From NCBI GenBank assembly GCA_002315595.1, contig DCHG01000062.1, positions 4,076 through 68,075 on the forward strand: a stretch of 64,000 nt of DNA. Direction: 5' to 3'. The translations under genes and the position numbers were made by a program. Below the pieces are notes generated by a model. The model made no database searches and was not told the origin of the DNA. It saw nothing but the letters and a program-made list of their open reading frames with translations. How positions within the stretch are numbered: the first letter of the stretch is position 1; each line of letters starts with the position of its first letter. The stretch is from Clostridiales bacterium UBA1758. Lineage in GTDB: Bacteria > Bacillota > Clostridia > Oscillospirales > UBA1758. Positions 41,679 to 64,000 of this stretch are shown in pieces.

Positions 41679-43148
41679 TTATGCGTTTTTGCCGAACACG
41701 CAAAAATCAACCACACCGATAGAAATTCCGTCCGCCCATTCAAGGATTCGTAGACGAACATATCGGGCAACCTTTGCCGGGAAGGAACGGTACGCGATAT
41801 TTTCTTCGATGTTATTGTCGCTTTGATCAAGAAGAATCTCCCAAGGACCGTCGATCGAATCGGCACATTCAATGACATATTTTGTCGGTGCCGGGACGAT
41901 TCCTGCGTCGTAATCAAGACCGACATCCCGCCAAATTACACGAGACGCCCCGCAACAACGGCTTCCTTGCAGATCGACCGTATAAGTCGGCATTTTATCA
42001 TCAGGTGCCGGTTGCCACCATGTCAGCATACTTTCATCGACGGCGTAAAGCGGGTTGCGTCCGTCGATAAAACTCGTCGCACGCAATGCTTTTCGGTTTC
42101 GGTAAAACAGCGGTGCAAGCCCGGTCGCGGTATTGCCGCGTTTTGCCTGTTCGGTTGCGGGCGCAAATCGAGGGGTGTCCGTGATCTCGGGGCAGAACAA
42201 AAGTCCGTTTTCGTCCATAAAGACCTGATCCATCCCGATTCTGCGCTCATAACAATGCTCATAGCAGACCGTTGTGGTATAAAATGTCCAAATCGTATCA
42301 TTCGGACCATCAACGACGCAACCATGTCCCGCACCAGAAACCAAACCTCTGTCATGCCGCGTCAGCGGATTGTTCGGCTGATATTGAAAGCCGGAAAGCG
42401 GGCTTTCGTCCGAATAATAGACGCCCTGCGCATATGCGCTAAATTCCGTACCGCAGCCGGAATAGATCAGATAATAACGACCGTTGCGTTTATACATCCA
42501 CTGACCTTCAATCCAGCCGAGTGAGTCGTCCTGATTGTGTTCACCGAAACATTCCCACCGGTGTTCAGGGTTGAATGCGTTGATTTCGATCGGATCGGTG
42601 GTGAAACGTCGCGGATCGTCCGGCGAAAGACGCACGCCGACAGTGCCGATGGTTGTGCCGACACCGTTCGGGCATTTGACATCACTGCACCAGTAAAGGT
42701 ACAATTCGCCGTCATCATCGCAGAACAGTGCCGGATCGGCAACCACAAGTGTCTTGCCATCCGGCGAAATAAATTCACCGAGCAACTCATACGGACCTTC
42801 CGGACGATCAGCGATGTAAAGCGGGCGATTTAATCCGCAAAGGAGAATTTTCCCCTTCCAAACACAGATCGCAGGACTGTAAAACACATCATGCAAAGTG
42901 CTACCGTCCGTCAGTTTGATATCAATATGTGTCCAATGAACAAAATCTTCCGTGACATAGGCAATCTCATAACTCGGAAAAAGATACCACTTACCCTCAT
43001 AATAAAGCACGCTCGGATCGGAAATCGAACGATAATCCGCAACGGGGATCCCGGTAAATCTCATTCCATTGGGGTAATCCACGCCACGCGGGCAATTTGG
43101 CATGGAGATCGGATTGCAATATGTATCAAATGAATGAATGTCCATCAT
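41679..43148 (-). CDS. Glycoside hydrolase family 43 protein with a C-terminal discoidin (F5/8 type C)-like domain; no signal peptide
   Basis: DPSVLYYEGKWYLFPS and repeated five-bladed-propeller-type segments. The C-terminal 130 aa ends in a galactose-binding-like pattern (ARYVRLRILEW). Confidence 0.75.
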   Translation of the reverse strand: MMDIHSFDTYCNPISMPNCPRGVDYPNGMRFTGIPVADYRSISDPSVLYYEGKWYLFPSYEIAYVTEDFVHWTHIDIKLTDGSTLHDVFYSPAICVWKGKILLCGLNRPLYIADRPEGPYELLGEFISPDGKTLVVADPALFCDDDGELYLYWCSDVKCPNGVGTTIGTVGVRLSPDDPRRFTTDPIEINAFNPEHRWECFGEHNQDDSLGWIEGQWMYKRNGRYYLIYSGCGTEFSAYAQGVYYSDESPLSGFQYQPNNPLTRHDRGLVSGAGHGCVVDGPNDTIWTFYTTTVCYEHCYERRIGMDQVFMDENGLLFCPEITDTPRFAPATEQAKRGNTATGLAPLFYRNRKALRATSFIDGRNPLYAVDESMLTWWQPAPDDKMPTYTVDLQGSRCCGASRVIWRDVGLDYDAGIVPAPTKYVIECADSIDGPWEILLDQSDNNIEENIAYRSFPAKVARYVRLRILEWADGISIGVVDFCVFGKNA

Positions 43149-43609
43149 ATCCTCCTGTTTTTTGTTTTCAAATCAGTATGTGTCAATTCCGTGATTTTGA
43201 TATGCGCATATCCGAATAAAACGGCGACCGCCACAAGGCTCCAATGGCGAAGCAGGGCTCCGCAAAGCAGGAATATGGCCGTCGGGATGACCGACAAAAC
43301 CATACCTTCGCGATAAGATTTCTTTTTTCCGTATCTTATCCATTCCAGATAATAAACAAAAAGTGCCACTGTATTGAAAAGAAAATAGACCTCTAATTCC
43401 GCCGCACTCGAAAATCCGAATTTCCACACAAAAACAGGCAGAAGCATCAAGCATATGCAACCGATCCTGCCGATCCATTCACAGATCGTCAGGTGTTTCG
43501 GCAACGTTACGGCCCCTGCGTTACGATTTTTCAACGAATAAACAAGATTTGGTATCAAAATCAGAAAAACGATCGCCGCATTAAAAAAGTTGATCCATCC
43601 GAATTTCAT
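43145..43609 (-). CDS. Small polytopic membrane protein, function unknown
   Basis: 4-5 predicted transmembrane segments. ATG at 43609 is preceded by GAGGG. The stop overlaps the GH43 start (ATGA). The track ORF extends to 43768. Confidence 0.5.
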   Translation of the reverse strand: MKFGWINFFNAAIVFLILIPNLVYSLKNRNAGAVTLPKHLTICEWIGRIGCICLMLLPVFVWKFGFSSAAELEVYFLFNTVALFVYYLEWIRYGKKKSYREGMVLSVIPTAIFLLCGALLRHWSLVAVAVLFGYAHIKITELTHTDLKTKNRRI

Positions 43610-43822
43610 CCGTTTGCCCTCGCTTGTCTGAAATATGTATGGTTCGCTCGTCAATAATTCTCTTGCTATACTCATTTTGCTCGATATTTCACGAAAACCA
43701 GCATTCGTTATTATTTTTTCGTTGTGTCGGATTGTTTTTTTCTTGCTTTCTATTTCAACATTACGCAAAGCGGATAATGTTTAGGTTCATGTGTTTCCAA
43801 GGAAATCAATCGATTGATAAAA

Positions 43823-45274
43823 TTACTTTTGGGAATGATAAAACACGGTTCGAATTTTAGAAAATACCTCTTTCACCAACCTGTCCTTTGCCAAAACCGC
43901 GCATACGAAATACACACTGCCTCCAATCAAAATTTGTAAAAATGTTGTTGACAATTTTGACGGAAGCGTCCTTGTAGCAAAAGCAATAACAAAGTACATA
44001 ATAACCGCTTGTACAGCATAATAAAGAGCCGTCCGTAGAATCCCCTCAAATTTAATCTGTTTTGTCATATAAACATATTGAATAACTGCACAAACACAAC
44101 TAGTTAAAATCGTCGCAAACGCCGCACCCATAAATCCATATTTCGGGATCAATACCGCATTTACCAATATGTTTAATATCATTGCACTAAACTGAGACAA
44201 CATCAGAATTTTGACTTGATTTGTAGCAGTAAAATATTGACTTCCGGAAACCCCCATCAAAGTATTTGTCAATAAAATCGGTGCCATAACCTTTATCGCT
44301 TGCACCGTTGGAATGAATTCATTTCCCAAATACCACGGAATGAATTTTTCTGAAATTGCAATCATTCCAAGCATCGCAGGAAAAGAAATAAATAACAAAC
44401 ACCTCGCAGATTTATTTAACAAACTCTGTATTTGTTCTTTATTCTCTCTTTTAAATTCATTTGCAATCCTAGGCATTATCGCATTATTAATCGCCAGAAT
44501 AAATGCCAACGGTATCGTGAGTATTTTTTCCGAGTAATCATAAAACGCAACTGCTTGAGAATTATCCGTCATCAATTCTATCATTATTTTATCACATTGC
44601 GTGTAAATAATCGTGCCTACCGAAGGGAGAAATAGCAATGCTGAATTGATTAAGTCCGTTTTAACATTGCTGAAATCCAAATGTGGCTTACGAACATATC
44701 TCTTAATTTGCGTAAATGAGATCGCATTTGCTAATGCTATCGATATCCCTTGAATAAATAAATATTTATCGATATCATTACTATCTTTAACAAATAGGAA
44801 AATGCTAACCACCGCGATTATTTTAGTCAGCATATTTTTCAATAATGCCCACTTCATATCCTCAACACCCACAAAAAGCCATGTCGGATCTATGAAATAG
44901 CCTATCATATAGGAATAATATATCAAAAACAGACTTCGATATTTTCCGATAGACATTGTAACTGCAAAGTATACAACCGAGCCGAAAATTGCAATTACCA
45001 CTCTTGACGACATTATTTGCCAAAAAACATTTGATATTGCATCCGGATCGTCCCGAACATACGCAATTTGTCTATTCCCATAGTTATAAATACCAAGTAT
45101 TACAATAGAGCAAATTAATGTTGTTGCCGAATTTACATAACCGTATATTCCTGTTCCAATCGGTCCCAATATGCGTGACAAGTAAGGCGCAGTAAAAAGC
45201 GGAATAAGCATCGAAACCATTTGGTATATCAAATTATATATATAGTTTTTGGTAATCTTTCCCATTTTGTTCAT
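43823..45274 (-). CDS. wzx: Oligosaccharide-unit flippase (Wzx, MOP superfamily)
   Basis: 12-14 TM protein with N-terminus NYIYNLIYQMVSMLIPLFTAPYLSRILGPIGTGIYGY, typical of polysaccharide flippases. Confidence 0.8.
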   Translation of the reverse strand: MNKMGKITKNYIYNLIYQMVSMLIPLFTAPYLSRILGPIGTGIYGYVNSATTLICSIVILGIYNYGNRQIAYVRDDPDAISNVFWQIMSSRVVIAIFGSVVYFAVTMSIGKYRSLFLIYYSYMIGYFIDPTWLFVGVEDMKWALLKNMLTKIIAVVSIFLFVKDSNDIDKYLFIQGISIALANAISFTQIKRYVRKPHLDFSNVKTDLINSALLFLPSVGTIIYTQCDKIMIELMTDNSQAVAFYDYSEKILTIPLAFILAINNAIMPRIANEFKRENKEQIQSLLNKSARCLLFISFPAMLGMIAISEKFIPWYLGNEFIPTVQAIKVMAPILLTNTLMGVSGSQYFTATNQVKILMLSQFSAMILNILVNAVLIPKYGFMGAAFATILTSCVCAVIQYVYMTKQIKFEGILRTALYYAVQAVIMYFVIAFATRTLPSKLSTTFLQILIGGSVYFVCAVLAKDRLVKEVFSKIRTVFYHSQK

Positions 45275-46248
45275 TTGTTTTTTTGTTTTTCATATTTTTT
45301 CTTTATCTTAAAATAACTGAGGGTTTTTTTTATTGAAATTCGATCTCGGTTTTGCATATACACCCTATAATAATATGCCAGTTTGTTTTTCTTGCCATAT
45401 TTTTTTACCAAATCGGAAGTTATTTCTCCATCGAATGACTTAATAACATCCGGATAGATCAAAAAACGGTCGAAAGAATCAACCCAAAGTTTCATCGGTC
45501 TGCAAAAAAAGTGAATATACAAATATTCCTCTTGGAACAAATCACTGCTTGCATTAATATAATAGCGAGATAGTTTTCCTTTTTCCCACAGAAATAAATT
45601 AAACTTATTTTTCCAGGCCTCGCATTTCTCTTTTCCCTGCAAGAAAAAACCGGCTTCGTATTTCTCCAGTCCGGCGTAAACAGTATCGGTAAATGAACGA
45701 AATTGGTATTTTTCATATATTTTTCGAATCAATTGAACATCTGTACAACAAATTTCGTCTGTTATAAAATCGTCATTGTACGATTCATCCTCTATTGCTA
45801 ATCTATACCGTAAATTAACTTCGGGATTATTTCTGTAAATCGTCGCATGACCCTGATTTCCGATTTTTTCATATTTCTGCAACATTTCACTTGTGTAGAA
45901 CCGTCTGATATTCCCCCACAATAAATCAATGTCGCAGTATCCCCAAAAATCAAAATCTTTTAGATACTCATGAAAAATATCACCGTACGCCACTTTATAG
46001 TCACACAATTTATAGGGTGTTTTTAGATTTATATGAAAATCGTACTTCCTCTGAATAAAGGACTGCATTTCTTTAAAAGACAGGTAAACAACTTTCACAT
46101 TTTCCGGGTACTCGTAGCAAGTATCATCATCAATAAACAAAATCCAATTAATTGTCGGGTTGTATTTGCATGAGTTTAACCACATTTGAAAATATGATGG
46201 TAAATGACCGAAATACAGAACAACAAAGCAAATACTGATTTCATTCAT
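45271..46248 (-). CDS. DUF6625-like protein (putative glycosyltransferase seen in capsule loci)
   Basis: VVLYFGHLPSYFQMWLNSCKYNPTINWILFIDD and FWGYCDIDLLWGNIRRF match what I remember of this family. The biochemical activity is not established. Confidence 0.5.
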   Translation of the reverse strand: MNEISICFVVLYFGHLPSYFQMWLNSCKYNPTINWILFIDDDTCYEYPENVKVVYLSFKEMQSFIQRKYDFHINLKTPYKLCDYKVAYGDIFHEYLKDFDFWGYCDIDLLWGNIRRFYTSEMLQKYEKIGNQGHATIYRNNPEVNLRYRLAIEDESYNDDFITDEICCTDVQLIRKIYEKYQFRSFTDTVYAGLEKYEAGFFLQGKEKCEAWKNKFNLFLWEKGKLSRYYINASSDLFQEEYLYIHFFCRPMKLWVDSFDRFLIYPDVIKSFDGEITSDLVKKYGKKNKLAYYYRVYMQNRDRISIKKTLSYFKIKKKYEKQKNK

Positions 46249-46250: not shown

Positions 46251-47510
46251 TTATTTCCCGCCCATTATTTCTTCAATCAACTGATTTTCATCACATTCTA
46301 AATAATGTTTCAAATATGTTTGTCCATATTTCCCACTGATTTCTACTTGAATTGTATTATTGGACCATTCAACATCATTTAGCACTTGTACCTTTGAAAT
46401 TACACTCTTTAACCAACAAAATCTAATTGTCATACATAAACGCTGTGCGAATGGCAACTCTGATTCTAACCAATGAAACACCCTGTTCGGCGTTGTCTGT
46501 TTAATGATATCAAAAAAGCATCTATCCACATAAGGTCTATTTGGTTTCATTCCATGACATATCGAGGAACTATGGACTCCGATTGGAAAGGATAATATCG
46601 GCATAGGAAAGAATGTCATAGGCGAATCATTATCCAATGCAATAACCCTGCATATCTCATTGTCGGCATTAAAATCCACAAAATAATTATTTTGTTTATG
46701 ATCTCTTTGAAAACAAATTGCATCAAAATAATTCAACCGATTCAACTCTTTTTGGAAAATCGGAGAAATGTGCTGTTTTTCCTCCAAAGACATATCTGTG
46801 GGACATATGCCATTGCACTCCTTTGTGACAATCCCAACCCTCTCAATGCCGTCATAGCATAATACCGCAAACCAGCAATTTGGAAACATATCATCTAATT
46901 CGAACAAATCTGCCAGTTTTTTTGTAGCGACGCTCATCATCGGGCGAAATATCTGATAGTGCCCTTGTTTGATAAAATTATTCAATTTAAATGAATATAT
47001 CTCGTTTCTGATGAATAAAACAAATTCAGTGCCAAAGTTTTCAAGAAATTCAACAACTTTTTCTTTCCCCTTTGAATAATCCTGAAACAGTCCCGGAAAT
47101 CCCACTTTCCCGAGATCCCATCCGCTATATCTTTTTCTTGTCGTTTCATAATGACTCTCAACATACGCATTCATCTTTTTAAGTTTTCTGATATTCTTCA
47201 GATTACTTAACTCGTTCTTAATTTGCAACTCTATTTCCTCTTTTTTTTCAAAGGAGTTAATATTTTCAAAATAATCTGTTATTACATCCTCAATATATAT
47301 TTGAAATTTACTATGAATTCGACATTCTTTAAAGTAAATGGTTGTTTCATCAACTACTGCGCGAATAATATTGTTTGAAGATGAAAAATAGGTGACATCT
47401 TCTCTCTTGCATTTATACACCGGAAGATCATCTTTGTCAATTTCCACTCGTTTTGATCCACTTCCGTATGTAACTTTTCGAATCAAATCAACTATTCGTT
47501 GCTTTATCAT
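46251..47510 (-). CDS. Hypothetical 419-aa protein with a PI3K/PI4K-like (atypical kinase) catalytic-loop pattern
   Basis: Clean ORF packed tightly between glycan genes. Residues 257-300 read NRLNYFDAICFQRDHKQNNYFVDFNADNEICRVIALDNDSPMTF. See the finding for details. Confidence 0.6.
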   Translation of the reverse strand: MIKQRIVDLIRKVTYGSGSKRVEIDKDDLPVYKCKREDVTYFSSSNNIIRAVVDETTIYFKECRIHSKFQIYIEDVITDYFENINSFEKKEEIELQIKNELSNLKNIRKLKKMNAYVESHYETTRKRYSGWDLGKVGFPGLFQDYSKGKEKVVEFLENFGTEFVLFIRNEIYSFKLNNFIKQGHYQIFRPMMSVATKKLADLFELDDMFPNCWFAVLCYDGIERVGIVTKECNGICPTDMSLEEKQHISPIFQKELNRLNYFDAICFQRDHKQNNYFVDFNADNEICRVIALDNDSPMTFFPMPILSFPIGVHSSSICHGMKPNRPYVDRCFFDIIKQTTPNRVFHWLESELPFAQRLCMTIRFCWLKSVISKVQVLNDVEWSNNTIQVEISGKYGQTYLKHYLECDENQLIEEIMGGK

Positions 47511-47532: not shown

Positions 47533-48336
47533 TTACTTGATAACGCCTTGTCCTTTGATTATTCTGCGTATAATACGTTCAATATGTAAAATTTTCATTA
47601 CTGCTATTGTATGCTGTAATATAGTTACTCTTCTAAGATATTTTTTTATCCATAATTTATCTACACCATTTCTTAATGCGATTGCTTCGTGTTCTTTTAA
47701 TGTCACGGTTTTAAAATGCTTTGAACTCTCTCCGCCTTCACGAAATCCACTTAATATTTCGTCTACATAATAGAATTTCGCACCGGCAAAATACATTCTT
47801 GACAAAAGTTCATAATCCATTGCGCATCTATAGTCTAAAGAAAACATCCCATACTTTTCATATGCCTTTGACGAAACAAAGACAGACGGATGATTAAGAA
47901 GAAATGTGTATTCCATTTTAGACAGATCCGTATCCGGCTTTTTTATATATCCATCGGATAATATGTTGCGGAATTTAATCGTTTTTCCAAAAACAACATC
48001 AATATCAGTCTGGTTTTCAAAAATACGGCTGATGGTTTTCACGGCCCCGGGATATAGCACATCATCCGAATTGATTATTCCAATAACATCGCCTGTTGAC
48101 ATCAGTATTCCTTTATTAAATGCATCGCTGATTCCCTTATCGGGTTCGGAAACATATCGTGTAACAACTCCCGGATATTGCTTAATTATGTCCAATGTTG
48201 AATCGGTTGACCCTCCATCAATTATAACATACTCTAAATCAGGGGAATTTTCGGCTTTCACACTCTCTATCGTTTCTCGCAAAGTCTTTTCACTGTTATA
48301 AGTTACCGTTATTATCGACACCCGTAAATTCTTCAT
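47533..48336 (-). CDS. Glycosyltransferase family 2
   Basis: VSIITVTYNSEKTL...VIIDGGSTDSTLDII...EPDKGISDAFNKG. ATG at 48336 is preceded by AAGGAAAG. Confidence 0.85.
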   Translation of the reverse strand: MKNLRVSIITVTYNSEKTLRETIESVKAENSPDLEYVIIDGGSTDSTLDIIKQYPGVVTRYVSEPDKGISDAFNKGILMSTGDVIGIINSDDVLYPGAVKTISRIFENQTDIDVVFGKTIKFRNILSDGYIKKPDTDLSKMEYTFLLNHPSVFVSSKAYEKYGMFSLDYRCAMDYELLSRMYFAGAKFYYVDEILSGFREGGESSKHFKTVTLKEHEAIALRNGVDKLWIKKYLRRVTILQHTIAVMKILHIERIIRRIIKGQGVIK

Positions 48337-48355: not shown

Positions 48356-49594
48356 TCAATCGATTGTTGCAATTCCTTGTTGACTGATAACTTTGGAGTC
48401 ATTCCCACTTACAATATAAACGACAACAAACAAGAAAAATCCCATGTTGAAATAATGCCCATATCTTAATAATCTCAACAGGAAATAACTAATACACATC
48501 AATTGAGTAATCTTGTTCGTTTTCAAATTGTCCGTTGTCCGATTTTTATAGATAAAATACACCATACCGGCAACGCCCAATATTCCCGTTTCAGATACAA
48601 TTCGCAAAAATAAAGAGTTTGCATCTTCCTGGTTTAATTGTAATTGAACAGAAGATATTTCAAATATTCCACTATATTTTTTATATGCGATCAAATGCGA
48701 TCCAAGACCGCCCCCCATTCCAAACGTCGATTTAAAGTTTTTTAAAGCCACTTTATAATTTATGAATAAGGTTTGGGTGCTTAAATTAGAGTAATCCTCA
48801 GTTTCTTCAAAAAGGAATAATCGAACTGTATCGTCCACTCTCATTTTGAAAATATCAACATAATTATATGCAACAATAAATAGTGCAATAAATAAAAGTA
48901 TAATGGATATTTGTTTAATTCCGTACTTATATTCCGATAGAATTAATATCAAAACAAACGCAATACCCACAAATCCCGATGATGAAAAAGTACAAATCAC
49001 TCCCATAAGAATAATAATCGCTTCAAAAGGATTAGAAATCATTATTTCGGATTCTTTATTATTGCCAATAAAATAGTAGATTGAAAAAAAGACTGCCGGC
49101 ATCAAAACCAGCGCGCATGCTGATGGCTCGGTGAAAATACCACTTGATCGGTAAAAATCAGTAGATCCTGCCTGGGATGGTACAAGCCATCTCATATCAT
49201 AAATAAAAGATACATTCATTTTGCGTGCAACTTGCTGTAACAATACAAATGCAGCAAGAACGCAAGAATAATCGGTATAAGTCTTTAGCACCGACAGATA
49301 ATTACCTTCGTCAATGATCGATGCATAAAAAATTAAATTCCCGAAAATTCCCAATATTTGCTTTAAAAGCAGAACCATTTCGTTGTTTTTTAAAATAACG
49401 CCAAGTATTCCGTGGATGAAAAAAACTGCAAAAAACAGTAAATATTTATTTGTTATTCTTATTGCTTTATAATTACACAAAAGAATAGAGAATTCGAGAA
49501 TCAAAATAACCTCAGGTGAAAAGACTCCCCCGAGAAAAATCAATAAAATCGCTATTTTTTGTTGCAACTTGGATAATGAAATTCTCATCGTCAT
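48356..49594 (-). CDS. wzy: Wzy-type polymerase / O-antigen-ligase-like membrane protein
   Basis: About 10-12 TM segments with a large loop late in the protein. It sits in a Wzx-containing locus. There is no strong sequence motif, as is typical for Wzy. Confidence 0.65.
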   Translation of the reverse strand: MTMRISLSKLQQKIAILLIFLGGVFSPEVILILEFSILLCNYKAIRITNKYLLFFAVFFIHGILGVILKNNEMVLLLKQILGIFGNLIFYASIIDEGNYLSVLKTYTDYSCVLAAFVLLQQVARKMNVSFIYDMRWLVPSQAGSTDFYRSSGIFTEPSACALVLMPAVFFSIYYFIGNNKESEIMISNPFEAIIILMGVICTFSSSGFVGIAFVLILILSEYKYGIKQISIILLFIALFIVAYNYVDIFKMRVDDTVRLFLFEETEDYSNLSTQTLFINYKVALKNFKSTFGMGGGLGSHLIAYKKYSGIFEISSVQLQLNQEDANSLFLRIVSETGILGVAGMVYFIYKNRTTDNLKTNKITQLMCISYFLLRLLRYGHYFNMGFFLFVVVYIVSGNDSKVISQQGIATID

Positions 49595-52658: not shown

Positions 52659-52730
52659 ATTATTCGTGCAAAATTCGTCGGTTTTGATTGCGTTCTTTCG
52701 AATTTACCATACACCGACTTCTATTATAAT

Positions 52731-52759: not shown

Positions 52760-52798
52760 TCACTACGGGGGTGATTTACGCGTTTTGCCTTTCTTTCG

Positions 52799-55863: not shown

Positions 55864-55900
55864 TTCAAGGGGGAACGCATTGCTTTGTTCATAAAATGAT

Positions 55901-55932
55901 GGGGCAGGTTCAATGAGCCTGCCCCGTTTTTT
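55901..55932 (+). terminator. Rho-independent terminator after fkp
   Basis: ggggcagg...cctgcccc stem followed by gtttttt. Confidence 0.75.
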
Positions 55933-56006
55933 CGGATATTTTCACTCTGCTCCGCACGACGGAAATAGGAATCGTCCACAGATGGAATATGGAAAATTTC
56001 GGCACA

Positions 56007-56888
56007 TCAATCACAATTTCCTTCGGCTCTGTTTTCTTCTTTGGAAACGATTTCACGAACTTCATCCAAAGATTTCCAATCGGCGGTATGTTTTTTCATT
56101 ACTATTTTGTGTCGAATTCTAACAACAAATTTAGGGAAACAGGAACGAATATGATAAAGTTTTCCCAGTGATTCTTTTGTCGTTTCGTATTTTTTCTTTG
56201 AGATTAGGTTATATTTATATAAAATCTTATTGTCTTCCAAGGCTACCAAAACTCCATTATTGGTTCCTATTCCATCACAGTCAAAAATCGACACGATTTG
56301 ACTAATTGATTGATATTGTACCCCCCCGGAAAATGCTTTTACGAAGAAACCAAAATCAGCGGCCAACCCTTCTTGTAACGAAAAAGGGTTGTTTTTTAGA
56401 TATTTGCTTCGAGTAATAACGGATTGGTGGCAAAACTCCATTTCTCCCAAAAATGACAATTTACTCGGATCCTTAGACCTGTAAACCCGATACTTATTTT
56501 GATACTTAAAAACCACATCGCCGTATATTATATCCGCGTTATTTTTATCTGCTCTCTCAAATACAAGCATCGAATATTCATCAAAAAAAATATCACCTGC
56601 ATTCAAATAAAGACACCATTCGCCGGTTGCAAGAGCCGCGCCTTTATTCATTGCGTCGTATATTCCCTTGTCCGATTCACTGTAAAAACGGATCAGTAAT
56701 CCCAATTTCTCCGCTTTCTCAATATATTCTTTCATTGCTTCTGCCGTTCCGTCCGTTGACGCCCCGTCAACTATCACCATTTCAATCGTACTCATATCAA
56801 TTTTCTGATACATAACGGATTCAACAGTTTTCAATAAATCTTTTTTCGCGTTTTTGCATATCGTGATGATCGAATATTCAGGCTTCAT
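56007..56888 (-). CDS. Glycosyltransferase family 2
   Basis: YSIITICKNAKKDL...VIVDGASTDGTAEAM...ESDKGIYDAMNKG. It is a paralogue of the GT2 at 47533..48336. ATG at 56888 is preceded by GGGAGGG. Confidence 0.85.
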   Translation of the reverse strand: MKPEYSIITICKNAKKDLLKTVESVMYQKIDMSTIEMVIVDGASTDGTAEAMKEYIEKAEKLGLLIRFYSESDKGIYDAMNKGAALATGEWCLYLNAGDIFFDEYSMLVFERADKNNADIIYGDVVFKYQNKYRVYRSKDPSKLSFLGEMEFCHQSVITRSKYLKNNPFSLQEGLAADFGFFVKAFSGGVQYQSISQIVSIFDCDGIGTNNGVLVALEDNKILYKYNLISKKKYETTKESLGKLYHIRSCFPKFVVRIRHKIVMKKHTADWKSLDEVREIVSKEENRAEGNCD

Positions 56889-56898
56889 AGCATTCCCT
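56832..56898. repeat. Direct repeat copy A (ribosome-binding site plus first ~15 codons of the GT2 gene)
   Basis: Near-identical to 58005..58070. The shared core is ttttcgcgtttttgcatatcgtgatgatcgaatattcaggcttcatagcattccct. Confidence 0.9.
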
Positions 56899-56918
56899 CC
56901 CAGCATAAAGTGATCCTC

Positions 56919-58031
56919 TCACCAATAACATCCATTTTCAACCTGTTTATAATTTTGGGGCGGAGTTTCGATTGGGCGAATCCAATTTTCATTGATAAAC
57001 TTCTTATATAAAAGATCGGAAGTGAGCAGAAATTCTCCATAAACTCCAAAAAAAGCCGGCAACCGTCCGCAAGGTTCAATTGCTATTTTACCCATTTTCT
57101 TGATCTCACACCCCAAAGGAAATCCGTATGCTCCTGCTCCAATAAGTGCAATATCAAAATCTATTTTCCGAATATCATCGATCATTTTCCTCAACACCTG
57201 AAAAAAATTGGTAAATCCTTCCGGTCGTTCGCCCACCTGAGTTGTATAAGTCTTGTATGTAATCAACTCAAAATCCGGCAACTCACATTCAGGCGAATAT
57301 GCCCATTCCGATTTGCGTTCATATTGTAATCTAATTGAATCCGTAAATGAATTTGCAACCAACACTTTTTTCCCTTTTAATGCACCAATCCATGTATCCC
57401 GAATCGGTTTATCACAATACGGCCCAAATTCAAAATATTGCTTTTTTCTATCATCAACCATTTTAACATGGCGAAGAAAATGACCATATGAAAACAACTG
57501 ATATTTAAACGGCGGAAAACTAACTGGCATATAATCGCATTCGGAATAACAAGAAATTAACAGTTCGGAAAACTCATCTACCGCTTGATCGATTTCTTTA
57601 TAGTCATCAGAAAAAAAGCCCGAAGTTTGATATAACCACTCAATCCAGCAAGTTTTGTACCTTTTTGTCACCTTGGCTCGTTTTTTACAATATGAATTTA
57701 CAATTGCCGCTTCAGTATTTCCCATCCTCCCCAGGAAAGTTGGTGTGCCATCCAATATCCTGTTTTTAATTTCATCAGTTTCTAAAATATCAATAGTTTT
57801 ATAACCTAAACCTTTTAATATTTGAAAATATGTCGTATCGCAATCGTGCTTTATCAGTGTTAGAAATGCACGAACTATATTGATTATAAAATAATCAATA
57901 CTATCTCTAATCGTAAATTTATACACTATATTTTCCTCTTTTGAAACAAGAATTTCACTTACTTTTTTATCTTTTACTCTTTTGAATGCACATCCATAAT
58001 TTTCCAATAAATCATTTTCGCGTTTTTGCAT
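56919..58031 (-). CDS. Hypothetical protein, possibly a GT-D-fold (DUF1792-like) glycosyltransferase
   Basis: 370-aa ORF. FLGRMGNTEAAIV and DIALIGAGAYGFPLGCEIKKMGKIAIEPCG loosely resemble GT-D family motifs. The ATG at 58031 has no ribosome-binding site; the GTG at 57926 is preceded by AAGAGGAAA. Confidence 0.5.
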   Translation of the reverse strand: MQKRENDLLENYGCAFKRVKDKKVSEILVSKEENIVYKFTIRDSIDYFIINIVRAFLTLIKHDCDTTYFQILKGLGYKTIDILETDEIKNRILDGTPTFLGRMGNTEAAIVNSYCKKRAKVTKRYKTCWIEWLYQTSGFFSDDYKEIDQAVDEFSELLISCYSECDYMPVSFPPFKYQLFSYGHFLRHVKMVDDRKKQYFEFGPYCDKPIRDTWIGALKGKKVLVANSFTDSIRLQYERKSEWAYSPECELPDFELITYKTYTTQVGERPEGFTNFFQVLRKMIDDIRKIDFDIALIGAGAYGFPLGCEIKKMGKIAIEPCGRLPAFFGVYGEFLLTSDLLYKKFINENWIRPIETPPQNYKQVENGCYW

Positions 58032-58070
58032 ATCGTGATGATCGAATATTCAGGCTTCATAGCATTCCCT
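58005..58070. repeat. Direct repeat copy B, in front of the 370-aa orphan gene
   Basis: Same core as copy A, with one substitution plus a 1-nt deletion in the A-run. This leaves a 28-codon remnant ORF (58060..57974, MKPEYSIITICKNAKMIYWKIMDVHSKE). Confidence 0.9.
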
Positions 58071-58145
58071 TCCGCTACATTTCATTGCATTTTTATCAAA
58101 ATATCATCAATTCACGTAATTGAAAAATAGTCTATACCGAGTCAT

Positions 58146-59270
58146 TCACAGGATCTTTTCCGTGATATTCAATACGGTCTCTATAATTTGATCCATATCA
58201 TAGTACTTATATTCGGCTAGTCGTCCGCAAAACAGAACATTTTGTTCTTTTAATGCTAATTCTCTGTATTTTTTTAATAAAATCTCGTTCTTTTCATCGT
58301 TTATTGGATAATACGGTTCAACTCCGGGTACCCATTCAGTACTATATTCCTTGGTGATGACAGTCTTTGGTATCTCGTTTCCGTTTTCATCCTTGCCGAA
58401 TTGAAACCACTTATGTTCAATCATTCTGGTCCACGGAGTATCCGCATCAGTATAATTAATAACGGCGTTTCCTTGGTAATTCGAACAATTAATTATTTCA
58501 TTTTCAAATCTAACCGATCTATATTCCAGATGACCATATTGATAATCGAAAAAGGCATCAATCGGACCGGAATAAATAATGTTCTCGGCTACAAATTCAT
58601 ATTCGGCTTTATTTTTTAAATAATCGACACCTAATTCTACATCCGCACCATCGAGCATCTTTTTTACCATTTCCGTATATCCACCATTTGGAATTCCCTG
58701 ATATTTAGCATTAAAATAATTATTGTCATAGGTAAATCGGACAGGTATGCGGTCGATAATGAATGTCGGTAATTGCGTGCACTCTCTCCCCCATTGCTTC
58801 TGCGTATATCCCTTAATCAGTTTTTCATAAATATCCGTTCCGACTAGCGAAATGGCCTGTTCTTCAAGATTTTTCGGAACGCGAATTCCTGACAATTTTC
58901 TCTGTTTTTCAATGAAACTTTTCGCTTCATCGGGCGATACAATCCCCCACATTGAATTAAATGTATACATATTAAACGGAAGCGAATATAATTCCCCCTT
59001 ATAATTGGCAATTGGGGAATTCACAAAATGATTAAAACTCGCAAACCGATTGACATAGTTCCATACTTTTATATTATTCGTATGAAAAATGTGTGCGCCA
59101 TATTTATGCACATCAATTTGGTCAATTCTTTCGGTGTAAATATTACCTCCAATATGTGACCTTTTATCGAGAACTAACACAGTTTTCCCTTTTTCTATCG
59201 CTCTTTGTGCAAATACAGAGCCACTTAATCCCGCGCCAACTATGAGAAAATCATATTTTTTCTTTTTCAT
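58146..59270 (-). CDS. glf: UDP-galactopyranose mutase
   Basis: YDFLIVGAGLSGSVFA...LVLDKRSHIGGNIYT...HKYGAHIFHTN...GRLAEYKYYDMDQ are classic Glf motifs. ATG at 59270. Confidence 0.92.
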   Translation of the reverse strand: MKKKKYDFLIVGAGLSGSVFAQRAIEKGKTVLVLDKRSHIGGNIYTERIDQIDVHKYGAHIFHTNNIKVWNYVNRFASFNHFVNSPIANYKGELYSLPFNMYTFNSMWGIVSPDEAKSFIEKQRKLSGIRVPKNLEEQAISLVGTDIYEKLIKGYTQKQWGRECTQLPTFIIDRIPVRFTYDNNYFNAKYQGIPNGGYTEMVKKMLDGADVELGVDYLKNKAEYEFVAENIIYSGPIDAFFDYQYGHLEYRSVRFENEIINCSNYQGNAVINYTDADTPWTRMIEHKWFQFGKDENGNEIPKTVITKEYSTEWVPGVEPYYPINDEKNEILLKKYRELALKEQNVLFCGRLAEYKYYDMDQIIETVLNITEKIL

Positions 59271-59287
59271 ATTTCCAGCCCCAGCAT

Positions 59288-60301
59288 TTAATCGCAACGA
59301 TTTGTATACCACGGAACAAGTTTCAACAACCAAAATGCTAAATACCGAGTTCTTCTCATACTTTTAATAAGAATTCCGGAATTTCCAAAATCTTTTCCTT
59401 CAATCACTGTATATATTTCCGGACTGATTTCTTTCATTTCCGTGTCAAATTTTCGAAGTTTTTGCAAAGTGGCTTTGTTAATTCCACAACGATAGAGATA
59501 TCGAAACGCCGTTCTTCCGGTAATTCCGCAGACTCTTAATAGGTAACTTTTGTTCGGAGTATTTTTTGAAATTAAGTGATAATTCTCCGAAATCATTAAT
59601 GAAATCTTCAAAAGATCATCAATATGCTTTTTTATAGATTCAGTCGATACCGATTGCCCGTCCCGCCCAATACGATAATTGTACATATTGATATGATAAT
59701 AGCGAATCGTTGTTGCTACCAAGAATGGTAAGTAAAAATAGACTGTATCCGTATACAATAAATGCTCCGGCAACTCAACACCCGATTTTAAGAGAACTTC
59801 TGTCCTATATGTTATATTCTGATGGCCATAATGTGAAGAAGGTACATTAATCGCTATATTTTGCAAATCCGAAATATCGAACGTCTCGATTTTTTTCATA
59901 TCTATATTATTTTCGCAAAAAGATCGCATATCTGATATTATCACATCTGCATTTTCATTCTCCAACTGTTTCAAAAAGGCTCCCAATGCACCTTTTTCCA
60001 ACATATCATCTCCGTCAAGCGTTTTGAAATATATACCGGTTGCATGATTGATTACATAATTTTGAACCGACCCGTATCCACCATTTTCTTTATGAACAGG
60101 GAAAATTGAATTTGGGTATTTCATTGCATATTCTTTTGCGATTGAGAGTGTTTCGTCTGTTCCACCATCGTCCACCACGAATATTTCCAATTTATCCATA
60201 ATTTCAGGTACAATTAATGAATCCAATGTATCTTTTATTGTATTTTGGGCATTAAATGCCGCAATTGATATCGTTAGAACTTTGTTCATTTTAACTTTCA
60301 T
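59288..60301 (-). CDS. Glycosyltransferase family 2 (candidate galactofuranosyltransferase, by position next to glf)
   Basis: LTISIAAFNAQNTIKDTLDSL...FVVDDGGTDETLSIAKEY. ATGA overlap with the upstream gene. Confidence 0.8.
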   Translation of the reverse strand: MKVKMNKVLTISIAAFNAQNTIKDTLDSLIVPEIMDKLEIFVVDDGGTDETLSIAKEYAMKYPNSIFPVHKENGGYGSVQNYVINHATGIYFKTLDGDDMLEKGALGAFLKQLENENADVIISDMRSFCENNIDMKKIETFDISDLQNIAINVPSSHYGHQNITYRTEVLLKSGVELPEHLLYTDTVYFYLPFLVATTIRYYHINMYNYRIGRDGQSVSTESIKKHIDDLLKISLMISENYHLISKNTPNKSYLLRVCGITGRTAFRYLYRCGINKATLQKLRKFDTEMKEISPEIYTVIEGKDFGNSGILIKSMRRTRYLAFWLLKLVPWYTNRCD

Positions 60302-61377
60302 TCCTTATCGATCAACTTTTGATAAAGCATCTTTCGTTTCTTTGCGTTTTGAATCGTCCGAAGTGTATCCGGCTTTCTTTCACGGTGAACAAGGTCACCG
60401 CAATACCCGATCAGCACGGCAATACGGGATTTCTTTTCAGCCGTTGCCTTCGCTTTCAAACTATTCCACGCCGAGATGAACAGACTATTTTTAATCCCGC
60501 CCTCGTTTGCCGCGCCGATATATTTAATCTGCGCGCAACGTGCCCAGTAATCCTTTTTCCCGAAATTACCCGATGCAAGAACATCCTCCATTATTTCGGA
60601 GACAATGTGCTCATCATCCGTCCCGTAGCAGTCGCGATACGGCATCGAAAGATATTCCACGCAAACGAGTGATACAACACGGGCAAATTTCCACAATCCA
60701 AGCGTTTTCAGTTCCGTCTCCCACCGGCTCACATCCACTTGATCAGCAAACACCGCCCAATCGCAAAGATGCCGAAGACCAAAGCCCTCAAGCGCAAAAT
60801 GCTTCGCCATATGGCTGAGCATGATCACGCAGTGATGATACGCCGACGGCATCATCATACCGTCGACCTCCTCCGCCTGCTCAATCACATTTTCAAAAAC
60901 GCTCTCAACTTTATCGTTGTTTCCCGAAATCCTTCGATGAACCTCAATCGTGATACCCGTTTCATCTGCGAATGCCGCGTGCATCACGCCATCGTCCTTT
61001 TTCATGGCATAGCCGTGATCCGTCATCACCTTCATTGTCCGGGGGAAATCCGCGTCGCACACATAAATGTCCACATCCCCTGCCATTCGTCGCATCGGCT
61101 CCGGATAGTACCGTGCAGACGTGCAACCCTTCAAGATCACATATGGGATCTGCGCCGATTTCATCATCTCGTGGATTTTCCGATGTTGGTCGAAAACAAG
61201 CAGATTTTTGCGGATAATCCTGAAAAACAGTTCGTCCTTGACATTCGGAAGCATCGCATATACGGCTTGTTGCGCCGCTTCCTCAAACAATTCCGGCGAA
61301 GTTTCAAAGGCTTCGATCGGAGCAGAAAAAAGAACATTCGCCAATATTTTCAGCAGGAGTATCTGTGTTTCGTTCAT
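60298..61377 (-). CDS. Uncharacterised nucleotidyltransferase family protein (NTP_transf_5-like)
   Basis: ILKGCTSARYYPEPMRRMAGDVDIYV resembles the nucleotidyltransferase-fold G..D.D signature of this family. ATG at 61377 lies 6 nt after GGAGG. Confidence 0.55.
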   Translation of the reverse strand: MNETQILLLKILANVLFSAPIEAFETSPELFEEAAQQAVYAMLPNVKDELFFRIIRKNLLVFDQHRKIHEMMKSAQIPYVILKGCTSARYYPEPMRRMAGDVDIYVCDADFPRTMKVMTDHGYAMKKDDGVMHAAFADETGITIEVHRRISGNNDKVESVFENVIEQAEEVDGMMMPSAYHHCVIMLSHMAKHFALEGFGLRHLCDWAVFADQVDVSRWETELKTLGLWKFARVVSLVCVEYLSMPYRDCYGTDDEHIVSEIMEDVLASGNFGKKDYWARCAQIKYIGAANEGGIKNSLFISAWNSLKAKATAEKKSRIAVLIGYCGDLVHRERKPDTLRTIQNAKKRKMLYQKLIDKE

Positions 61378-61409
61378 AACCATCCTCCGAATATTGTGAC
61401 AAATGTTCT

Positions 61410-61450
61410 AAAAAAGTCAAAATCCCACCGAATTTCGGAGATTTTTGACC
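61410..61450 (-). terminator. Probable rho-independent terminator after galE (minus strand)
   Basis: The minus strand reads GTCAAAAATCTCCGAAATTCGGTGGGATTTTGAC followed by TTTTTT. The stem is imperfect. Confidence 0.55.
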
Positions 61451-61484
61451 AATATTATTCTATCAGCAGACTAAATTCGCGGTA

Positions 61485-62492
61485 TTACTTGCACCATTCG
61501 CTCCGTTGCCATCTCCACGAGTCACGGCACATATCTTCAAGTGAATGTTCAGCCCGCCAACCGAGGATCTTTTCCGCCTTTTCGGTGCTTGCAAAACTCA
61601 CCGCAATGTCACCGGCGCGTCGTCCCACCACGCGGTACGGGATCTTCACACCATTGGCGGTTTCAAACGCGTGAATTAAATCAAACACGCTATATCCAAC
61701 GCCGGTGCCGAGGTTGAATATCTCGCATCCTTTGTTGTTTTTCGAGTAGTTCAATGCCGCCAAATGTCCCTTTGCCAAATCAACGACATGAATATAATCA
61801 CGCACACCCGTGCCATCCGGCGTAGGATAATCGTCGCCGAAAACGCTGAGATTCTGACGAACGCCCGCCGCAACCTGCGTAATGTACGGCATTAGATTGT
61901 TCGGGATACCATTCGGTTTCTCGCCGATCATGCCGGATTCATGCGCACCGATCGGGTTAAAGTAGCGAAGCAGCACAACGCTCAACTTCTTGTCCGCTTT
62001 TGCGGCGTCCGCAAATATCTGTTCGTTCATATATTTTGTCCAACCGTAGGGGTTGGTGCAGCCGTTGCTTTTTTCTTCTTCGGTGGATGGAATCGTATCC
62101 GACATCGCATAGACCGTTGCCGAGGAACTGAACACAATTCTCTTGCAATGGAATTCTTCCATCACTTCAAGCAGAGCAAGCGTCGTTTCGAGATTATTAC
62201 GGTAATACATGATCGGCTTTTCGACCGACTCACCGACCGCCTTATATCCCGCAAAGTGAATGACGGCTTCGATGGAATTTTCGCCGAAAATCCTTCTCAA
62301 TTCATTCTTGTCGGTGACATCGGCTTCGTAGAATTTCGCCTTCTTCCCGGTGATCTTTTCAATGCGATCAACAACGGAAATATCACTGTTGTACAAATTG
62401 TCAACAATCACCGTATCCATACCCGCGTTCAAAAGTTCGACCGCAGTATGTGACCCGATAAAGCCGGTTGCTCCCGTAAGTAAAATGCTCAT
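61485..62492 (-). CDS. galE: UDP-glucose 4-epimerase
   Basis: MSILLTGATGFIGSH...YGWTKYMNEQ (YxxxK)...NLGTGVGYSV. ATG at 62492 is preceded by GGAG. Confidence 0.92.
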   Translation of the reverse strand: MSILLTGATGFIGSHTAVELLNAGMDTVIVDNLYNSDISVVDRIEKITGKKAKFYEADVTDKNELRRIFGENSIEAVIHFAGYKAVGESVEKPIMYYRNNLETTLALLEVMEEFHCKRIVFSSSATVYAMSDTIPSTEEEKSNGCTNPYGWTKYMNEQIFADAAKADKKLSVVLLRYFNPIGAHESGMIGEKPNGIPNNLMPYITQVAAGVRQNLSVFGDDYPTPDGTGVRDYIHVVDLAKGHLAALNYSKNNKGCEIFNLGTGVGYSVFDLIHAFETANGVKIPYRVVGRRAGDIAVSFASTEKAEKILGWRAEHSLEDMCRDSWRWQRSEWCK

Positions 62493-62692
62493 TTCAATCT
62501 CCGAATAAATAAAAATGATGAACGACGCCGTCATGTCGCCGACGCAAATTTGTCGGTTTTTTCAATAAATAACCATGTAATTTCATATATTATACGTTTT
62601 ATTGACCGGAAAGTCAAGAAAATGCAGAAGGATTGAGTTAATCACCTATCGTGAGAAATAATTATGAATTGGAAAGTCTGCAAAAACCAAAT

Positions 62693-63763
62693 TTATCTGA
62701 TTGTGTTTTTTGTTGTTTTTTCTTTTGTAAACAATAATCTATTATGAATTTTCCTTACTGTTTCAATAATTCCATAATTTTTTAAATATGAAATTACTAG
62801 GAAACTGTGCAGAACTAGTCCTGAATATATTTTTGTTGGATGATATCTACCCATCCAATACTCATAGTTTTGCTCTATTGGAAATTCTTTCTTACTTTTT
62901 TCAAATATTCTGTTGTATTTTTTTTGCAACTTCTTCACAGTTTTTGAATCATTTAATTCGATTTTGCATTTTTCTTGATGTTTAATAATCACACGCAACA
63001 ACCATTTTTTAGCCTCAAGCGATGCTTCCATCTCACCTTCATTGCTTAAATAATTTAATGCGTCTTCCGCACCGTCAACCTCATCCAATTTTTTTTTGGT
63101 ATATTTCCCACGCGTAATGCTACTCGAACTTAAATAGTAAAAATAACCATCATAGTCAACTTTTAAAATTCTTTTTGCTGAATGAATTAATTGGGGTGTT
63201 ATAAATAAATCCTCATTCAATCTCCCTACTGGAAATCGAAGACATCTATACAGTTCTTTGTTAATTAATTTGCCCCACGCCGGCATATAAATTTTACCGC
63301 AGTCATTTTTAAAAATTCTAATACACGCGTTGCTACGAGATTCGATATACATACCGCGGTTTTGGACAACATGATTTGTAGTATCATCAGTTACAATATG
63401 ATCACATATAATCAAATCAGATGAATAACTGATCCCAGTTGTATATAAAGTTTCTAAATACCGAATATGAATCCAGTCATCGCTATCAATGAAAGTTACC
63501 CATCCGCTGTCGCTGCACGCAAAGGCATAATCGATTCCGTTGTTTCGTGCCGCAGAAAGACCGGCATTGGGCTGATGGATCACGCGGACACGCTCATCCT
63601 GCAAAAGGTACGCGTCACAAATTTCACTGCACCCGTCCGCCGAGCCGTCATCGACGAGGATAAGTTCAAAATCAGTATAGGTTTGTGAAAGAATGCTGTC
63701 CACGCAACGACGAAGATATGGCTCAACTTTGTAAACGGGGACGATAACGGAAATTGTGGGCAT
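62693..63763 (-). CDS. Glycosyltransferase family 2
   Basis: ISVIVPVYKVEPYLRRCVDSILSQTYTDFELILVDDGSADGCSEICD. The ATG lies directly after the upstream stop. Confidence 0.88.
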   Translation of the reverse strand: MPTISVIVPVYKVEPYLRRCVDSILSQTYTDFELILVDDGSADGCSEICDAYLLQDERVRVIHQPNAGLSAARNNGIDYAFACSDSGWVTFIDSDDWIHIRYLETLYTTGISYSSDLIICDHIVTDDTTNHVVQNRGMYIESRSNACIRIFKNDCGKIYMPAWGKLINKELYRCLRFPVGRLNEDLFITPQLIHSAKRILKVDYDGYFYYLSSSSITRGKYTKKKLDEVDGAEDALNYLSNEGEMEASLEAKKWLLRVIIKHQEKCKIELNDSKTVKKLQKKYNRIFEKSKKEFPIEQNYEYWMGRYHPTKIYSGLVLHSFLVISYLKNYGIIETVRKIHNRLLFTKEKTTKNTIR

Positions 63764-64000
63764 TCAAATCACCCTCCACTCCTTTGGTATCAGCGCGTCC
63801 AGTGTAAGTTCATTGTGTCTTTTATCGCAAAACCATTTTGAAGTGACTATCACTTCTTTGTTTTTTGACGCAGTCGAAAGATAAGCCGCCCACCAACTGA
63901 ATGTGGAATTTGGTATTATAAAATGTTTACAGTGTTTCATCAATTCAAGGTCTTCATACATCGATTCACTATTTTCTTTGTCAATATAAACACAATGTTT
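63764..64000 (-). CDS. Glycosyltransferase family 11 (alpha-1,2-fucosyltransferase), C-terminal 78 aa; the rest lies outside the window
   Basis: HFIIPNSTFSWWAAYL is the hallmark C-terminal GT11 motif. The ORF stays open to base 64000. Confidence 0.8.
   Translation of the reverse strand, partial: KHCVYIDKENSESMYEDLELMKHCKHFIIPNSTFSWWAAYLSTASKNKEVIVTSKWFCDKRHNELTLDALIPKEWRVI

Follow-up and report, generated by a model that had tools for sequence, protein, structure and literature searches.

The window analysed here is a 64,000-nucleotide stretch of contig DCHG01000062.1 from Clostridiales bacterium UBA1758 (Oscillospirales), and our subject is the surface-glycan gene region that fills it from position 43145 to its right-hand end. 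This region holds 17 complete open reading frames (ORFs) and the 3′ end of an eighteenth. An earlier note on this DNA had listed 17 packed genes and read them as one Wzx/Wzy assembly line producing one polymer. Searches against Pfam and NCBIfam uphold that note's family calls for Wzx, four GT2 and two GT4 glycosyltransferases, a DUF6625 protein, a hexapeptide acetyltransferase, Glf and GalE, and likewise support GT11 and both domains of Fkp; the calls for Wzy and a GT-D-like protein are weaker, both falling below threshold (scores are given with each gene below). The layout of the genes, however, does not fit a single line. Two runs of minus-strand genes, each with internal gaps of −4 to 200 bp, are separated by a plus-strand fkp gene (52891–55863) that is convergent with a GT2 gene (GT2b) on one side and divergent from a WcaI-family GT4 gene on the other. 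Because fkp interrupts the minus-strand runs from the opposite strand, the region consists of two transcription units, which we call modules A and B. Scans for promoters and terminators were no richer than in shuffled sequence (70 against 60 promoter-like and 23 against 18 terminator-like matches).

Module A runs on the minus strand from 52645 to 43823. It opens with the WcaI-family GT4 gene (51419–52645), whose product matches NF007640 over its full length (159 bits, below cut-off) and whose start is likely the ATG at 52645, downstream of a G-rich ribosome-binding site. There follow a WbbJ/WcaF-like hexapeptide-repeat O-acetyltransferase (50844–51422; PF00132, 46 bits; NF007240 WbbJ, 76 bits, below cut-off), GT4a (49591–50778; PF00534, 71 bits; PF13439, 51 bits), a putative Wzy polymerase (48356–49588) that is polytopic, with at least seven hydrophobic segments, and scores 29 bits against the Wzy_C cut-off of 31.7, and GT2a (47533–48336; PF00535, 91 bits; TIGR04009 wcaE, 86 bits, below cut-off). 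The module closes with a 419-residue protein of kinase-like fold (46251–47510), the DUF6625 protein (45271–46248; PF20330, 287 bits) and a Wzx-type flippase of the MOP family (43823–45274; PF01943, 97 bits).

Through a homologue of the 419-residue protein we located the closest syntenic relative of module A, a locus (L091) on a 423-kb gut metagenome scaffold. L091 encodes, in order, Wzz, a CpsD-like ATPase, Bac_transf, a GT4, a hexapeptide acetyltransferase, a second GT4, a 422-residue membrane protein, Acyl_transf_3, the 419-residue homologue, DUF6625 and Wzx; it is a self-contained capsule locus and holds neither glf nor GT11. Five products of module A have counterparts there: the WcaI-family GT4 (62% identity to the L091 GT4 situated after the priming transferase), the acetyltransferase (77%), the kinase-like protein (54%), DUF6625 (64%) and Wzx (70%). 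GT4a, Wzy and GT2a, in the middle of the module, have none, with the Wzy-like protein standing in the polymerase slot of L091. Judged by gene order, module A and L091 thus share their ends and differ in an apparently serotype-specific middle, as is usual for such loci. The head of L091 is missing from the window: homologues of Wzz, CpsD and Bac_transf were absent from the 64 kb (tblastn with the L091 Bac_transf and CpsD), and a scan for the GPRP and DGxDGL motifs of Bac_transf- and WecA-type enzymes returned none in any frame, which bears out the earlier observation that no priming transferase or chain-length regulator is visible. By its gene content, module A thus belongs to the capsule-type loci but has lost, or never had, the genes that head them.

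Within the window, module B begins with only a fragment of its GT11 gene, the C-terminal 78 of 283 residues (63767–64000, minus strand; PF01531, 46.8 bits against a cut-off of 23.9); no complete ORF of the window matches PF01531, the signal being confined to this piece at the window edge. Downstream on the same strand lie GT2d (62693–63763; PF00535, 118 bits), the UDP-glucose 4-epimerase GalE (61485–62492; TIGR01179, 434 bits against 262), an NTP_transf_5 protein that the earlier note had left unnamed (60298–61377; PF14907, 126 bits), GT2c (59288–60301; PF00535, 82 bits), the UDP-galactopyranose mutase Glf (58146–59270; TIGR00031, 404 bits against 304; PF03275, 260 bits), a 370-residue protein with a weakly GT-D-like C terminus (56919–58031; PF22882, 21 bits against 27) and the WcaE-like GT2b as the last gene (56007–56906; PF00535, 82 bits; wcaE, 110 bits, below cut-off). 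GT2c is a candidate galactofuranosyltransferase solely because it adjoins glf; compared with solved structures, GT2c and GT2d matched generic GT2 enzymes and no GlfT2.

An exact-protein look-up identified a Joint Genome Institute (JGI) metagenome contig, L001, which matches window positions 52693–64000 (11.3 kb) at 99.98% identity and extends 4,125 bp past the window's end. On L001 GT11 is full length (283 residues; PF01531, 97.9 bits) and carries both hallmark motifs of its family, VAVHIRRGDY (HxRRGD) and IIPNSTFSWWAAYL (NSTFSWW-type; NSTFSWWAAYL). Upstream of it on the same strand are genes for Wzt (421 residues; PF00005, 73 bits), a 129-residue 23S-rRNA-IVP/bAvd-like protein and Wzm (PF01061, 60 bits), both transporter subunits lying outside the window, and finally the C-terminal half of a GT4 (L001 1–883), the outermost gene, with in-frame stops upstream of it, at which the contig ends. 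Neither the window nor any locus that we fetched contains a further copy of the sequence at this end. The wzt stop lies 3 bp ahead of the GT11 start, and the gap from GT11 to GT2d is 0 bp. Module B therefore reads, on the minus strand from beyond 68 kb to 56007, GT4 remnant, Wzm, IVP gene, Wzt, GT11, GT2, GalE, NTP_transf_5, GT2, Glf, GT-D-like protein, GT2. The earlier expectation that the locus runs on past 64 kb is thus correct; no priming transferase, which the note proposed to seek there, is seen in the 4,125 bp recovered.

Because GT11, GalE and Glf lie in an operon headed by wzm and wzt, the genes of a transporter of the ATP-binding cassette (ABC) type, fucose and galactofuranose (Galf) most likely belong to an ABC-exported glycan; the gene for the O-acetyltransferase is part of the other, Wzx/Wzy unit, on the far side of fkp. 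This departs from the model of the earlier note, in which the product of a single Wzx/Wzy locus is one capsule or exopolysaccharide that is fucosylated, O-acetylated and contains Galf. On that model any ABC transporter nearby would be unrelated. That all the genes fall inside 21 kb, that Wzx and a Wzy-like protein are both present and that a central fkp could serve the whole region are compatible with such a model. It is at odds with the placing of GT11 directly behind wzt and of GT2d immediately next, with a low-GC boundary inside wzt that ties its carbohydrate-binding domain (CBD) to GT11 (see below), with the opposite-strand fkp, which breaks co-transcription, and with the end-to-end synteny of module A to a self-contained capsule locus that lacks glf and GT11. 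We disfavour it as very improbable.

The reading that we prefer, and to which we give a probability of about 0.68, is that of a composite, horizontally remodelled surface-glycan region in a sporulation-capable gut Clostridia bacterium, composed of a Wzx/Wzy module (A) and an ABC-transporter module (B) that are split by the plus-strand, host-like fkp. Its foundations, all of them shown, are the gene families, the layout of the operons, the blocks of differing composition, the synteny and the scars of recombination. The bacterium, an uncultured one, probably belongs to Oscillospirales, to judge by the sources of its nearest Fkp and Wzt homologues. In module A, an O-acetylated, perhaps phosphorylated, repeat unit would be assembled on a lipid carrier, flipped across the membrane and then polymerised. 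In module B, the whole Galf- and fucose-bearing chain would be made in the cytoplasm and exported via Wzm/Wzt. Fkp would provide GDP-fucose by salvage, with GT11 of module B as the only user that a family test supports and the WcaI-like GT4, divergent from fkp, as a possible second; both modules would share the precursor supply. The sugar composition, the order of assembly, the production of separate polymers by the two modules and the expression of the genes are what we infer under this scheme. As to evolution, a host-like scaffold (wzm, the wzt ATPase domain, galE, NTP_transf_5, fkp, the WcaI-like GT4 and the acetyltransferase) would have been kept while low-GC specificity cassettes were exchanged between its members. 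Assigning the fucose and Galf genes to an ABC pathway, not a Wzx/Wzy one, changes which mutants should be made and which chemistry sought.

The family assignments underlying the precursor supply hold: Glf for UDP-Galf, GalE for UDP-Gal and the Fkp-like enzyme for GDP-fucose, together with fucosyl transfer (GT11) and acetyl transfer. The fkp product joins PF07959 (residues 100–475, 228 bits) and a PF00288 GHMP kinase domain (residues 741–809) in one chain, the combination expected of a fucokinase/fucose-1-phosphate guanylyltransferase. It aligns over its full length (residues 65–957) with the NCBIfam equivalog model NF009948 at 387 bits, short of the cut-off of 721, and with both domains of Bacteroides fragilis Fkp (5YYS; kinase 170 bits, pyrophosphorylase 26 bits). 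It is accordingly Fkp-like rather than a proven Fkp equivalog, and some FKPs also accept D-arabinose (PMC12732313).

A word-index search, whose scoring was confined to the 8,000 candidates with the most words in common with the query, found at least 1,903 proteins related to Fkp at E ≤ 1e-20. The best 120 are 56–71% identical, and those of them that are named come from metagenome-assembled genomes (MAGs) of Ruminococcaceae, Acutalibacteraceae, Eubacteriales, Ruminococcus and Eubacterium. Among five near relatives, four have fkp inside or at the edge of a glycan or nucleotide-sugar locus, and the contents of these loci vary: fucU follows fkp in two, gmd, fcl and manC occur in two and NTP_transf_5 is nearby in two. 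Together with galE, NTP_transf_5, wzm and the ATPase domain of wzt, fkp thus acts like a scaffold that is retained. On two related Clostridia contigs an RbsD_FucU fucose mutarotase gene stands directly 3′ of fkp (L087 12991–13428 and L088 13007–13462); the window lacks such a gene, and there the convergent GT2b comes next to fkp.

With homologues this close abundant in Clostridia MAGs, usually at glycan loci, and with a GT11 enzyme of Bacillus cereus already in use in published work (PMC12075129), the earlier statement that this biology is not well described for spore-forming Clostridia was overstated. Our literature search for GT11 enzymes from Clostridia returned unrelated papers only, and a single paper was found that connects Oscillospiraceae with capsule, fucose and glycosyltransferases. 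Hardly any work exists on the surface glycans of gut Oscillospirales, an abundant but mostly uncultured group. The fucosylation fed by fucose salvage that experiments have shown in Bacteroides has a genomic parallel that is widespread among Clostridia.

We next consider base composition, using as baseline the forty-three 1-kb windows left of 43 kb (mean GC content 0.513, standard deviation 0.031). GC falls to 0.32–0.39 at 44–51 kb, 56–60 kb and 62–64 kb (z = −3.9 to −6.2 for 1-kb windows), and these three low-GC blocks alternate with genes of host-like composition. The abrupt drop reported in the earlier note is therefore real, and a recount reproduces its figures of 16/60 for the line at 44401 and 40/60 for that at 30301; the drop sets in not at 43145 but at about 43.6–43.8 kb, in the interval separating wzx from a small gene for a membrane protein. 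Gene by gene the distribution is bimodal. Twelve genes have 32–38% GC (those for Wzx, DUF6625, the 419-residue protein, GT2a, Wzy, GT4a, GT2b, the GT-D-like protein, Glf, GT2c, GT2d and GT11) and five have 45–51% (those for the acetyltransferase, the WcaI-family GT4, Fkp, NTP_transf_5 and GalE), the latter being similar to the flanking genes for ValRS, FolC, SpoIIAB and SigF. In L091, too, the variable part is at 26–29% GC and its flanks at 38–43%, so that low GC is a general property of such cassettes and not an oddity of this genome.

One composition boundary lies inside wzt. Wzm (50.4% GC) and the Wzt ATPase or nucleotide-binding domain (NBD; 50.3%) are host-like, in contrast to the Wzt C-terminal domain (32.2%) and GT11 (34.5%); the drop, from some 50% to some 30% GC, occurs at Wzt residues ~255–285 (L001 3000–3100), exactly the junction of NBD and CBD, and GC stays low onward through GT11. 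The Wzt family profile aligns with full-length Aquifex aeolicus Wzt (8DKU, 7K2T) at positions 54–395, through the carbohydrate-binding domain (E = 7e-87); many homologues also carry PF14524 (Wzt_C). Identity to this Wzt, taken over 72 homologues, averages 77% in the NBD and 19% in the CBD. Because GC breaks at the NBD/CBD boundary, the CBD and GT11 look like a single swapped cassette, and on the same compositional grounds the CBD appears to have come in together with GT11 and GT2d.

To place this arrangement among its relatives we collected 80 wzt loci (L003–L082) from Oscillospiraceae, Acutalibacteraceae, Lachnospiraceae and other genomes, in which Wzt is about 55–60% identical and Wzm adjacent; the closest Wzt in the genome scan reached 58–60% identity. 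Homologues of wzm and wzt are present in 77–80 of the 80 loci, and GT2d homologues (42–45% identity) in 51, with no homologue of Glf, GT11, Fkp or Wzx within 10 kb in any of them. A gene on the same strand follows wzt in 71 of the 80. It encodes a pyruvyltransferase in 15 loci, a GT2 in 12, an FrhB-like protein in three (a class defined by a cluster of four related proteins), a GT10 fucosyltransferase in three, LicD in two and a glycerophosphotransferase in two. Looked at from the other side, 14 of the 26 pyruvyltransferase-like ORFs in these loci lie immediately 3′ of wzt and 20 lie no more than two genes away. CBD similarity is higher when the class of the downstream gene matches, with ATPase-domain identity controlled (permutation p = 0.003, for pairs that are phylogenetically non-independent). 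Among metagenomes, a scan for GT11 found no relative above 39% identity, and a wzt-type gene stood upstream on the same strand in about nine of 80 distant GT11 loci, directly adjacent in none. In a common Gemmiger-type gut locus (L095–L097, 11278–12120), a gene for GT6, the blood-group A/B transferase family, overlaps the wzt stop; its slot parallels that of GT11 here.

GT11 fills the slot after wzt in which related loci hold pyruvyltransferases and other end-modifying enzymes. Wzt binding domains are known to recognise a chemically modified chain terminus (PMC9445017), and in the Klebsiella O1 antigen a terminal pyruvate added by WbbZ stops polymerisation (PMC10629545). Taken together, these observations suggest that GT11 may provide a terminal fucose cap. 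We raise as a tentative possibility, one that we would not yet bet on, that throughout this Wzt family, which is common across gut Clostridia, the gene after wzt encodes an enzyme capping the non-reducing end and is swapped together with the CBD as one cassette; here the cap would be the α-1,2-fucose added by GT11, and this host-like, H-type terminus would serve an ABC-exported Galf polymer as chain-stop and as export signal alike. The co-swap of the Wzt CBD with the enzyme encoded after wzt, for which the evidence is positional and compositional, is one of two wider leads from this region.

The other lead is the 419-residue protein. It has no match in Pfam, NCBIfam or, by sequence, the PDB, and belongs to a family of 870 representatives (E ≤ 1e-3) that is covered by no Pfam model; members are about 410 residues long and close homologues are few. 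An AlphaFold model computed from an alignment of 81 sequences is of high confidence (pLDDT 95.3, pTM 0.93). Foldseek places type II phosphatidylinositol 4-kinases (PI4K) at the top (probability 1.0, E = 5e-5 to 2e-3), with TM-scores of just 0.2–0.39, followed by the atypical kinases HipA, CotH, CtkA and Rv3197. Across the 81 sequences D263, D270 and D293 are invariant and H271, N275, N294 and D295 nearly so; of these, D270, H271, N275, D293, N294 and D295 lie in the motifs FQRDHKxxNYFV and ALDNDSP, from which we infer a kinase catalytic loop and a metal-binding loop. We propose that the protein is a putative kinase of a glycan or of a lipid-linked intermediate. One member of the family (P0140, 765 residues, among family proteins P0133–P0285) is fused to a GT4. 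The family is found in capsule-type loci beside DUF6625 and Wzx, and DUF6625 travels with the kinase-like gene and Wzx in L091 and in L094, where it is 53% identical to the protein in the window. Our literature search found no paper mentioning DUF6625. Of the three genes that had been listed as unassignable, then, one now has a fold (protein-kinase-like, nearest to PI4K type II); the 419-residue, GT-D-like, DUF6625 and NTP_transf_5 proteins have no sequence match among solved structures.

Besides the truncated outermost GT4, two further features of module B look like traces of recombination. A 72-bp sequence comprising the ribosome-binding site and first codons of GT2b (56828–56898, minus strand) recurs at 95.8% identity ahead of the GT-D-like gene (58000–58070, minus strand), where this upstream copy has lost 1 bp and the resulting frameshift yields the start codon of the GT-D-like ORF. 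This duplication looks like a recombination scar of the kind left by gene insertion. The IVP/bAvd-like gene between wzm and wzt (L001 1734–2242, about 1.9–2.4 kb past the window end) is flanked upstream by a heptamer run, (TAGTTGC)n/TAGTTGT, and downstream by its inverse, CAACTAGCAACTA. No gene of this kind lies between wzm and wzt in any of the 80 homologous loci, and it may be a small mobile insertion.

Such scars raise the question of whether recombination has left one module, or both, as a remnant that no longer functions, in a partly decayed region from which no fucosylated or Galf-containing glycan is made. The GT4 remnant with its upstream in-frame stops, the missing priming and regulatory genes of module A, the IVP gene wedged between wzm and wzt, and the duplication and frameshift at the GT-D-like gene could all be read in this way. 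All 17 complete ORFs of the window are nevertheless intact, closely spaced and full length against their family models. Priming enzymes such as WecA and TagO are, moreover, often encoded elsewhere in the genome, as with O-antigen and teichoic-acid loci. We see little chance that decay accounts for the region.

Several points weigh against a composite region with two independent glycan modules. The adjacency of the modules would fit equally well with two modules cooperating on one polymer, and the predicted sugars and linkages derive from family membership. Module A is without the Wzz, CpsD and CpsE of its closest syntenic relative and could be a remnant; Wzy and the GT-D-like protein score under their Pfam thresholds. 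As to module B, wzm and wzt are known from a metagenome contig of the same strain and not from the window, the outermost visible gene is a GT4 truncated at the contig end, so that the true 5′ end lies beyond L001, and this Wzt's own match to Wzt_C is weak (E = 0.016). Finally, neither module has a priming glycosyltransferase that can be seen in the 68 kb, and either may therefore be unable to work on its own.

The last of these points would be accounted for if the two modules built one dual-chain cell-wall polysaccharide, module B supplying an ABC-exported backbone and module A a Wzx-flipped, Wzy-polymerised side chain that is joined to it outside the membrane. The modules are directly adjacent, module A lacks the priming transferase, Wzz and CpsD that are present in L091, and a bipartite ABC plus Wzx/Wzy layout with conserved and variable parts is the architecture of the rhamnose-containing cell-wall polysaccharides (Rha-CWPS; PMC9574508), as in the cwps and epa loci of Lactococcus and Enterococcus, in which both kinds of module are likewise neighbours and conserved stretches occur together with hypervariable ones (PMC9574508, PMC7188991). 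The components peculiar to that architecture are, however, wanting. Pfam and NCBIfam searches of the 17 genes and the 4.1-kb extension gave no rhamnan or rhamnose genes and no GacI/GacJ- or WpsA/B-type initiator forming an undecaprenyl-phosphate (Und-P) sugar. Nor is there an additional polytopic, GT-C-like attachment protein, Wzx and Wzy being the sole large membrane proteins, and an oppositely oriented gene stands between the modules. On balance we think a dual-chain polymer unlikely and retain the composite, two-module region as the better description.

The two modules fall within known pathway types, and the region is a typical serotype-variable polysaccharide region. Module B resembles the Klebsiella pneumoniae O1/O2 D-galactan I locus (wzm-wzt-wbbM-glf-wbbN-wbbO) and other ABC-dependent O-antigen loci in being an operon led by wzm and wzt with glf and several glycosyltransferase genes; in those systems the chain is made whole in the cytoplasm and exported by Wzm/Wzt, as we propose for module B. 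It differs in that the host is of Gram-positive type, with no lipid A-core acceptor, that no homologues of WbbM, WbbN or WbbO were identified, and that GT11 follows wzt and GDP-fucose would come from Fkp salvage. The Wzt of Klebsiella O2a, unlike the one here, is not known to carry a binding domain. Module A corresponds to the Gram-positive cps-type Wzx/Wzy loci (the CpsA–E paradigm, with L091 as the nearest case), with the same order of end genes, five of them 54–77% identical, and a variable low-GC middle; it differs in lacking Wzz/CpsC, CpsD and CpsE (Bac_transf) and in having a different Wzy, GT4 and GT2 in the middle.

The fucose genes have their own parallels. As in the Fkp-dependent fucosylation of B. 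fragilis, a two-domain fucokinase/GDP-fucose pyrophosphorylase is encoded beside surface-glycan genes; here it is distant in sequence, its host is clostridial and it belongs to the large clostridial homologue group described above. In E. coli O-antigen loci such as O86, O127 and O128, GT11 enzymes mimic blood group H or B. A GT11 with the HxRRGD and C-terminal motifs lies in a surface-polysaccharide locus in both settings, but the E. coli loci depend on Wzx/Wzy and synthesise their GDP-fucose de novo, whereas here GT11 stands directly after wzt in an ABC operon. Mimicry of the H antigen by this bacterium is a conjecture drawn from the family membership of GT11. In the colanic acid pathway of E. 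coli the wcaI and wcaE steps add fucose (PMC12075129); module A has a WcaI-family GT4 followed by an acetyltransferase gene, and WcaE is the best named relative of both GT2a and GT2b. All of these scores are far below the equivalog cut-offs and no WcaJ is found here, so the resemblance is best taken as a hint of GDP-fucose use, perhaps, in module A as well, and not as membership of that pathway.

At the left margin of the region we confirmed the genes for ValRS, FolC, SpoIIAA/AB, SigF and GH43. A further small gene (43145–43609, minus strand; 43% GC) lies between GH43 and wzx and encodes a 154-residue protein with four transmembrane-like segments and no Pfam or NCBIfam match; it overlaps the start of GH43 and is also called at 154 residues on a sister contig, and whether it is part of the glycan region is uncertain. 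The GH43 gene (within 41679–43609), which includes an F5/8 type C domain, ends 19 bp from the convergent sigF gene; it also overlaps with the small membrane-protein gene upstream, whose stop codon lies in the overlap. These two genes have the same orientation as module A and a host-like or intermediate GC content. The organism is represented by just a few assemblies. All proteins that we tested, ValRS and SigF included, fall in 90%-identity clusters of one or two members consisting of their own or near-identical copies from the same contigs, and the exact match of SpoIIAB is confined to contigs of the same strain. Relatives were therefore compared at a greater distance, by way of Fkp, Wzt and the kinase-like protein. 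One of these clusters also holds a 228-residue fragment from a 949-bp contig.

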